Origin: a virus
Reading direction: 5' to 3' (one strand)
Virus record (IMG/VR): IMGVR_UViG_3300033121_001702
Length of the DNA stretch: 21,507 bases
In this document: one piece after another, positions 9,444 through 9,498 of the stretch
Numbering within the stretch: the first letter of the stretch is position 1
Layout of the letters: every line of letters starts with the position of its first letter
Program-made: the position numbers and the translations under genes
The notes under the pieces: model-generated
Seen by the model: only the letters and a program-made list of their open reading frames with translations
Databases searched by the model: none
Told to the model about the DNA's origin: nothing

Positions 9444-9498
9444 TGGTGTCGAAAGAGGGGCGCGAACCCTCATAAGCAGCGGAAAGATAACCTTCAAC
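9444..9498 (-). ncRNA. tRNA-like minihelix: acceptor stem + T-arm + encoded CCA, with no D or anticodon arm
   Basis: Minus-strand read GTTGAAG-(20 nt)-GAGGG-TTCGCGC-CCCTC-TTTCGAC-A-CCA; acceptor stem 7/7 paired (2 GU), T-stem a perfect 5 bp, CCA immediately after the discriminator. Confidence 0.3.

Follow-up and report, generated by a model that had tools for sequence, protein, structure and literature searches.

The window analysed here is a stretch of 21,507 nucleotides (nt) of viral DNA (IMG/VR record IMGVR_UViG_3300033121_001702), in which an earlier note had described positions 9498-9444 of the minus strand as a 55-nt transfer RNA (tRNA) minihelix. We conclude with high confidence that this element is not a minihelix and that it is the 3′ part of a 142-nt unit (9585-9444, minus strand), in which an entire Glu/Gln-type tRNA frame carries 76 nt in place of the 7-nt anticodon loop. 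By analogy with the species 1 RNA of phage T4, the unit may be a stable, tRNA-shaped RNA that is processed as a tRNA and does not decode, its frame scaffolding the insert; we put the chances of this reading at about even.

Architecture and identity of the unit

Read from 5′ to 3′, the unit runs GTCGGAA TC GTCT-AAAGT-AGGAC G GCAGC (insert) GCTGC TTAT GAGGG-TTCGCGC-CCCTC TTTCGAC A CCA (Table 1). The order of the cloverleaf is satisfied across 9585-9444 by helices of 7, 3-4, 5 and 5 base pairs (bp), and all 21-22 base pairs of the frame are intact, as is the terminal ACCA. The insert begins with TTCGAC at its 5′ junction and ends with CTTTCC at its 3′ junction. Judged by their sequence, these ends look like a decayed CTTTGAA (Gln) or CTTTCAC (Glu) loop.

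The frame is called Glu/Gln-type because its D-arm and variable loop match those of tRNA-Gln and tRNA-Glu. A scan of metagenome contigs with the D-arm and the 5′ anticodon-stem strand returned one match, in contig L019, to a tRNA with no interruption, typed by ARAGORN as Gln(UUG), which reads TCCGGTG TC GTCT-AAAGT-AGGAC G GCAGC CTTTGAA GCTGC TTAT GTTGG.... The unit is identical to this tRNA over the D-arm and 5′ anticodon-stem strand (22/22 nt) and again over the 3′ stem strand and variable loop (9/9 nt). With the tRNA-Glu of the window, the unit has in common the D-arm (TCGTCTAA..AGGAC) and the variable loop of 4 nt. L019 is a high-GC contig with two adjoining tRNA-Gln(UUG) genes (L019:87-232); in the second of these, the D-arm is of the Glu type and the T-loop, TGCGAGT, is unusual and carries G at position 55. 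The unit was also considered as a partner of the lysyl-tRNA synthetase (LysRS) encoded in the window, and was rejected as such on the Glu/Gln type of its D-arm and variable loop.

Table 1. Positions of the parts of the 142-nt unit, of structures predicted in and beside it, and of long-armed tRNA-framed RNAs in other phage contigs
Feature	Position	Strand	Remarks
Unit, 5′ half			GTCGGAATCGTCTAAAGTAGGACGGCAGC
Unit, 3′ half			GCTGCTTATGAGGGTTCGCGCCCCTCTTTCGACACCA
5′ acceptor strand GTCGGAA	9579-9585	(-)	7 pairs with TTTCGAC, one of them G-U
D-arm GTCT-AAAGT-AGGAC, Glu/Gln type	9563-9576	(-)	ARAGORN intron mode; same as in L019 tRNA-Gln(UUG), similar to tRNA-Glu of the window
Anticodon-stem 5′ strand GCAGC	9557-9561	(-)	perfect pairing with GCTGC 9480-9476
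Insert, 76 nt	9481-9556	(-)	takes the place of the 7-nt anticodon loop
Anticodon-stem 3′ strand GCTGC	9476-9480	(-)	inside the 'linker' of the earlier note
Variable loop TTAT, 4 nt	9472-9475	(-)	same in L019 tRNA-Gln
T-arm GAGGG-TTCGCGC-CCCTC	9455-9471	(-)	stem perfect; loop has C at the usual A58 position
3′ acceptor strand TTTCGAC	9448-9454	(-)	pairs with GTCGGAA
Discriminator A and encoded CCA	9444-9447	(-)	ACCA kept in L001 at the edge of a 133-nt deletion
GTTGAAG, 5′ acceptor strand of the earlier note	9492-9498	(-)	part of the insert, not an acceptor strand
Predicted insert hairpin TCGAC-GCAA-GTCGG	9555-9542	(-)	
Predicted insert hairpin TCGAA-GCAA-TTCGA	9519-9506	(-)	
Predicted insert helix CAACTA/TAGTTG	9527-9522 with 9500-9495	(-)	
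AT-rich 10-bp hairpin followed by ATTTT, terminator-like	9591-9615	(-)	4 nt upstream of the unit
Long-armed tRNA-framed RNAs	L008:4200-4309, 5918-6025; L018:3844-3951, 5693-5801; L006:12360-12501; L013:4691-4822		

Detection by tRNA models

Default ARAGORN and Rfam recovered five ordinary tRNAs in the window and nothing at 9498-9444. When introns were allowed, ARAGORN called one 142-nt gene, c[9444,9585], which at -ps95 was its sole additional call in the window. False calls were gauged on 60 dinucleotide shuffles of the window (1.29 Mb), in which -ps95 produced 2 intron-type calls (0.03 per window) and -ps90 produced 0.67 per window. A 'tRNA-Tyr with 104-nt intron' called at 10154-10338 with -ps90 was discarded because that mode gives false calls at this rate; the call is thus at chance level, and its 5′ half is not conserved in the related contig L001.

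Searches of Rfam, at gathering thresholds and at E <= 10 over 8900-10800, assigned the unit to no family and revealed neither a ribozyme nor an intron nor a transfer-messenger RNA (tmRNA). Neither default ARAGORN nor its tmRNA mode called the unit. It was also rejected as a tmRNA on its pair 3-70, which is C-G and not G3-U70, together with the empty tmRNA-mode and Rfam results. Nor is the unit a canonical tRNA, as defined by a 7-nt anticodon loop, U33, a purine at position 37 and detection by standard models.

The 55-nt element

The element of the earlier note (9498-9444, minus strand) reads GTTGAAG GTTATCTTTCCGCTGCTTAT GAGGG TTCGCGC CCCTC TTTCGAC A CCA. The sequence bears out its perfect 5-bp T-stem around TTCGCGC, its 3′ acceptor strand, its discriminator A and its encoded CCA. 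The acceptor stem had been described as fully paired over 7 bp. GTTGAAG and TTTCGAC can indeed form seven pairs, but two of these are G-U and a better partner, GTCGGAA, lies upstream. As 7-mers able to pair with TTTCGAC occur at 0.0012 per position, one such 7-mer is expected by chance in ~10% of cases over the ~90 nt upstream. The 55-mer has a fold z-score of -0.5 (64/200 shuffles fold as well). In the 142-nt transcript the helix with GTTGAAG has a pairing probability of 0.0, because GUUGAAG pairs with CAACUA within the insert, as against 0.72-1.0 for the helix with GTCGGAA. The 20-nt 'unstructured linker' contains the last 8 nt of the insert, a TCC remnant, the GCTGC strand of the anticodon stem and the TTAT variable loop. 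The D and anticodon arms, which the earlier note had taken to be missing, both exist, and the 5′ half of the tRNA lies ~70 nt upstream. No promoter or processing signal is apparent at 9498, and the indel boundaries in L001 bracket 9585-9444 rather than 9498-9444. Although its T-arm and ACCA are real, an independent acceptor/T-arm minihelix serving as a tRNA decoy is very improbable.

An acceptor/T-arm end with CCA is the kind of substrate on which RNase P and CCA-end enzymes act, and a non-decoding 'tRNA mimic' role for the element is possible. The encoded CCA had been read as the sign of a functional 3′ end, and this reading stands in part: a deletion in L001 starts right after ACCA, but the CCA as such carries no particular signal, since the tRNA-Met, tRNA-Glu and tRNA-Phe of the window encode it as well. 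A tRNA with an internal deletion, the simple explanation that the earlier note had named against itself, was not what we found; instead, a tRNA frame bears an internal insertion, and the insertion is shared by one relative.

Relatives and divergence

This lineage is thinly sampled. The 138-amino-acid (aa) protein encoded beside the unit had a single homologue among 5.8 billion proteins, with 93% identity, and the unit is also present in L001, the contig that encodes this homologue. Contig L002 likewise has the unit and does not differ from the window. L022, from a third sample, has the L001 haplotype and ends short of the unit. The comparisons rest on these two haplotypes only (window/L002 versus L001/L022), which are ~98% identical.

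Between the window and L001, no difference was found in the tRNA frame of the unit (0/66) or in tRNA-Glu and tRNA-Met (0/151). All three changes within the unit (two mismatches and one indel) are in the insert. Neighbouring spacers diverge by ~3.7%, and in the two adjacent genes 30/313 third codon positions (9.6%) are different. At this codon rate, the chance of 0/66 would be ~0.001. Two deletions in L001 flank the unit: one of 16 nt ends exactly at its first G (9585), and one of 133 nt starts directly after ACCA (9444). At the 5′ junction of the insert, a TT->G change in L001 lengthens the anticodon stem from 5 bp to 6 bp and leaves the frame undamaged. As far as two sequences can tell, this pattern fits a constrained 142-nt unit.

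Wider searches added no relative of the unit. When the region or the unit was compared with 50,697 phage records by megablast and blastn, canonical tRNAs alone were retrieved. Exact scans of IMG/VR with the T-arm/acceptor and with the D-arm/anticodon stem gave 0 matches, as did a scan of genome contigs, and 0 IMG/VR loci were found for the 138-aa protein and the vault-like protein of the window. A gapped Glx-frame pattern had 8 matches, all of them chance matches to non-tRNA sequence. Within the window, no second copy of the insert is present, just a 12-nt match (E = 0.14) downstream of tRNA-Glu. In phages of 462-735 kb, no tRNAs were found near the vault-like gene.

Folding of the unit and insert

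In L001, the cloverleaf frame is the minimum free energy (MFE) structure of the unit, at -44.2 kcal/mol. In the window, the frame-enforced fold (-43.3 kcal/mol) comes within 2.8 kcal/mol of the MFE, which belongs to a rod-like hairpin, GCUUCGA...UCGAAGC (-46.1 kcal/mol). The fold z-scores of the unit are -2.4 in the window and -2.0 in L001. Two of the hairpins predicted in the insert are capped by GCAA; the predictions do not show that these are more than chance.

Precedents and similar RNAs in other phages

The species 1 and species 2 RNAs of phage T4 (rnaC and rnaD) are transcribed and have unknown roles (PMC3014915). Their genes (139 and 119 nt) share the strand of the T4 tRNAs and come at the distal end of that cluster, much as the unit is the last element of a phage tRNA cluster and on its strand. 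As in the unit, a tRNA-like T-arm is present in rnaC and the termini pair around a large insert; the T-arm of rnaC is canonical and its insert is structured. The two are similar in length (139 versus 142 nt). Unlike the unit, rnaC has no encoded CCA, no clean D-arm/anticodon-stem frame and U-U mismatches in its acceptor-like helix, whereas in the unit the cloverleaf frame is complete and the insert occupies precisely the anticodon loop. The fold z-score of rnaC is -4.6, far beyond chance, versus -2.4 for the unit. Blastn (word size 11) against the 50,697 phage records, T4 included, revealed no sequence similarity of the unit to rnaC or rnaD and gave one weak, unrelated match.

A second parallel is artificial. 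In engineered tRNA scaffolds, an RNA is inserted at the anticodon position of a tRNA that retains its acceptor stem, T-arm and D-arm; such scaffolds are recognised and processed by Escherichia coli factors, and the RNA accumulates (PMC3753655). The design of these scaffolds (the Ponchon and Dardel approach) is the same as that of the unit, with the anticodon stem closing the inserted RNA, but they are constructs, whereas the unit is a natural arrangement known from sequence alone.

Intron-mode ARAGORN called 8 interrupted tRNAs in those IMG/VR phage contigs that share the vWA gene, versus 1.5 expected from shuffles. The long-armed RNAs in L006, L008, L013 and L018 (Table 1) are 108-142 nt long, lie in or near tRNA clusters and are missed by standard tRNA finders. 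Several of them fold as an acceptor stem, a D-arm, a rod-like extended arm and a T-arm, with z-scores of -2.5 to -3.2. One orthologous pair, L008:4200/L018:3844, has 32 predicted pairs, of which 21 are unchanged, 2 have one-sided changes, 7 have compensatory changes, 2 fall in alignment gaps and 0 are broken, and the covariation takes in the extended arm. The insert motif of the L008 type was found in just two contigs, both already among those analysed. A second pair, L008:5918/L018:5693, was set aside as evidence for a class, since it covaries only in the frame helices and its arm is not conserved in register. L006:10831-11011 was rejected as an example, as it folds no better than chance (z = +1.1).

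The long-armed RNAs share with the unit the 7-bp acceptor stem, the D-arm, the T-arm and 30-110 extra nt at the place of the anticodon loop. They differ from it in having no sequence homology to it and in their insert, which is a single rod-like extension of the anticodon stem, as opposed to the competing folds of the unit. No description of such RNAs was found in the literature searched. Together, the unit and the covarying long-armed RNAs of unrelated phages suggest that the architecture recurs. Tentatively, the unit could be a functional representative of a broad and undescribed class of phage RNAs, T4 species 1 and the long-armed RNAs included, in which the tRNA frame is a natural scaffold for the processing, stability and presentation of a non-tRNA module that takes the place of the anticodon loop. 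The target of such a module might be a tRNA-binding factor of the host or the phage; the module could, for instance, be a decoy for a defence or an enzyme that targets tRNAs.

Stable RNA, intron or pseudogene

The unit is the final element of a minus-strand cluster, where it follows tRNA-Glu and tRNA-Met inside 1.7 kb of non-coding DNA. As a stable RNA, it would be co-transcribed with these two neighbours, which share its strand and its cluster, and would be excised in tRNA fashion, given that RNase P and 3′-end trimming recognise the acceptor/T-arm stack and the ACCA end. The excised unit would then persist as a tRNA-shaped RNA, unable to decode because no normal anticodon loop exists, and the tRNA frame would be a processing and stability scaffold for the inserted module. 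The same intact frame would be expected of an intron-containing tRNA, from which an unknown phage or host activity excises the insert before the halves are ligated into a decoding tRNA. ARAGORN models the unit in this way, and to our knowledge all known bacterial tRNA introns sit in the anticodon loop, as the insertion does. Moreover, a group I intron is present elsewhere in the window (16373-16638), and the window encodes a LysRS-like enzyme yet no tRNA-Lys. However, the anticodon that ARAGORN infers is Thr(CGU) for the window but Lys(CUU) for L001, nearly identical as the two haplotypes are, the Glu/Gln-type D-arm is unsuited to either tRNA-Lys or tRNA-Thr, and no register restores UUG or UUC in a 7-nt loop, position 37 being C in all of them. 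The tRNA genes of bacteria and phages that contain group I introns are likewise interrupted in the anticodon loop, but group I introns have a minimum of roughly 200 nt, whereas the insert amounts to 66-76 nt, depending on the register. It lacks a P3-P9 core, no Rfam intron or ribozyme matches it even at E <= 10, and RF00028 matches the window only at 16373-16638. Archaeal and eukaryal tRNA introns, which are spliced by proteins, are likewise short inserts (tens of nucleotides) in the anticodon loop that partly pair with the loop, as GAAGG could with CTTTC here. Nevertheless, an exhaustive search of the unit (2+3+4+2 geometry) found no bulge-helix-bulge motif (3-nt bulge, 4-bp helix, 3-nt bulge), and the Pfam matches of the open reading frames (ORFs) in these 21.5 kb of genome include no RNA ligase or splicing endonuclease. 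The context of the unit, with encoded CCA and with nearest gene homologues in cyanobacteria, is bacterial-type. An intron-containing tRNA is therefore improbable, and it is similarly hard to credit that the insert represents a novel, short type of tRNA intron and that some unfamiliar activity excises it.

A young pseudogene is a more serious alternative, which we regard as possible though somewhat unlikely. A Glu/Gln-type tRNA in a duplicating and decaying array would have been broken by an insertion or rearrangement of ~70 nt in its anticodon loop, leaving stems that have not yet decayed and no function. Much of what favours this explanation also weighs against a functional stable RNA. The absence of any register with a normal anticodon loop is matched by a T-loop, TTCGCGC, that has C at position 58 and so departs from the conserved T54...A58, and the unit is missed by the Rfam tRNA model at E <= 10 as well as by default ARAGORN. 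The insert has no homologue anywhere searched, it folds on its own no better than shuffles (z = -0.9), and the window and L001 are predicted to favour different insert folds. The sole nucleotide changes between the haplotypes are in or next to the former loop. At the spacer rate, 0/66 has a probability of ~0.08, and purifying selection on the frame is not proven by sequence comparison, as there are just two haplotypes. The same non-coding stretch holds other tRNA fragments, including two defective neighbours, one resembling a 5′ half (9706-9675) and one resembling a tRNA(CAT) with an unpaired 5′ strand (10425-10339), so that tRNA duplication and decay do happen here. Finally, the link of the unit to a class of RNAs is architectural only, since it shares no sequence with rnaC, rnaD or the IMG/VR examples. 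On the other side, a pseudogene accords poorly with a frame that retains every pair and the ACCA and that has no change (0/66) where third codon positions differ by 9.6%. Two independent indels stop at the two ends of the unit with single-nucleotide precision, the mutation in L001 improves the cloverleaf, and the body of the unit is still identical to an intact tRNA-Gln of an unrelated contig.

Genomic context

Upstream of the unit, the terminator-like hairpin at 9591-9615 is not essential, as its 3′ half is deleted in L001. A promoter scan gave nothing above shuffles, and L001 lacks a -10-like box that immediately precedes the unit. The regions described below by their coordinates are on the minus strand. 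Right after tRNA-Met, positions 9706-9675 hold a Glu/Gln-type 5′-half fragment, GTGAGGT TT CGTC-TAACCTAAACAG-GACG, without a 3′ partner; from its sequence, it looks like a decayed paralogue of the unit or of tRNA-Glu. Downstream of the unit, ~440 nt of non-coding DNA (9443-9001) separate it from the next gene. The first part of this region, 9443-9314, is absent from L001, and the remainder, 9313-9001, has 4/313 differences and ends in a strong terminator-like hairpin with T8 at 9076-9053. The region may contain a further small RNA or a long leader.

The tRNA(CAT)-like body at 10425-10339 has an anticodon arm (ATTAA-CTCATAC-TTAAT), a T-arm (GTAGG-TTCAACT-CCTAC) and a 3′ acceptor strand (CAGCGCA). 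It ends in ACCG in the window and in ACCA in L001 and L022, and no matching 5′ strand is found upstream. A perfect partner for CAGCGCA, TGCGCTG, is located downstream at 10312-10306, across a 33-nt patch (10338-10306). In this patch, 14/30 positions differ between the haplotypes, versus <=3% in its flanks; the stem is kept and the loop is replaced. Either a permuted tRNA-like element or a plain hairpin could account for the stretch 10425-10306. The adjoining 156 nt of non-coding DNA (10305-10150) have 1/156 haplotype differences, versus 9.6% at third codon positions, and contain a T-arm-like GGG-TTCGACT-CCC; they are probably another structured RNA.

The genome represented by the window is huge-phage-like, and the window encodes ThyX in addition to the proteins that follow. 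An 879-aa protein (12271-14910) has the shoulder and repeat domains of the major vault protein, and its phage matches are confined to uncultured phages of 462-735 kb. Its true start is probably further downstream, because the annotated start overlaps tRNA-Phe (14866-14941). Just upstream of the tRNA cluster are vWA (TerY/TerF-like) and TerC genes (10732-12158). The closest homologues of the vWA protein are one phage relative at 92% identity and, otherwise, proteins of Nostocales cyanobacteria (Dolichospermum, Aphanizomenon) at <=53% identity, a hint that the host, or the donor of the gene, is a cyanobacterium. The region 19577-21168 encodes an archaeal-type Pth2 peptidyl-tRNA hydrolase and, beside it, a class II synthetase resembling LysRS (413 bits to lysine--tRNA ligase). 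The group I intron at 16373-16638 (RF00028, 51 bits) and the ORF of an HNH endonuclease (16378-17100) overlap at the 3′ end of the ORF.

Significance

For annotation, the unit is a gene that Rfam and default ARAGORN overlook and whose 3′ half, naively read, becomes a spurious 'minihelix'. If it is a pseudogene, it is an everyday example of how genes arise and are lost in phage tRNA arrays. In addition to a LysRS-like synthetase, Pth2 and several tRNAs, a huge phage here has a putative tRNA-shaped RNA with a clean frame and no capacity to decode, which bears comparison with the T4 species 1 and 2 RNAs, tRNA-like stable RNAs whose role has been unexplained for decades. A model permissive of large inserts in a tRNA frame would make a survey of this architecture feasible. 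Should long-armed tRNA-like RNAs prove to be a functional class, the significance of the unit would rise.

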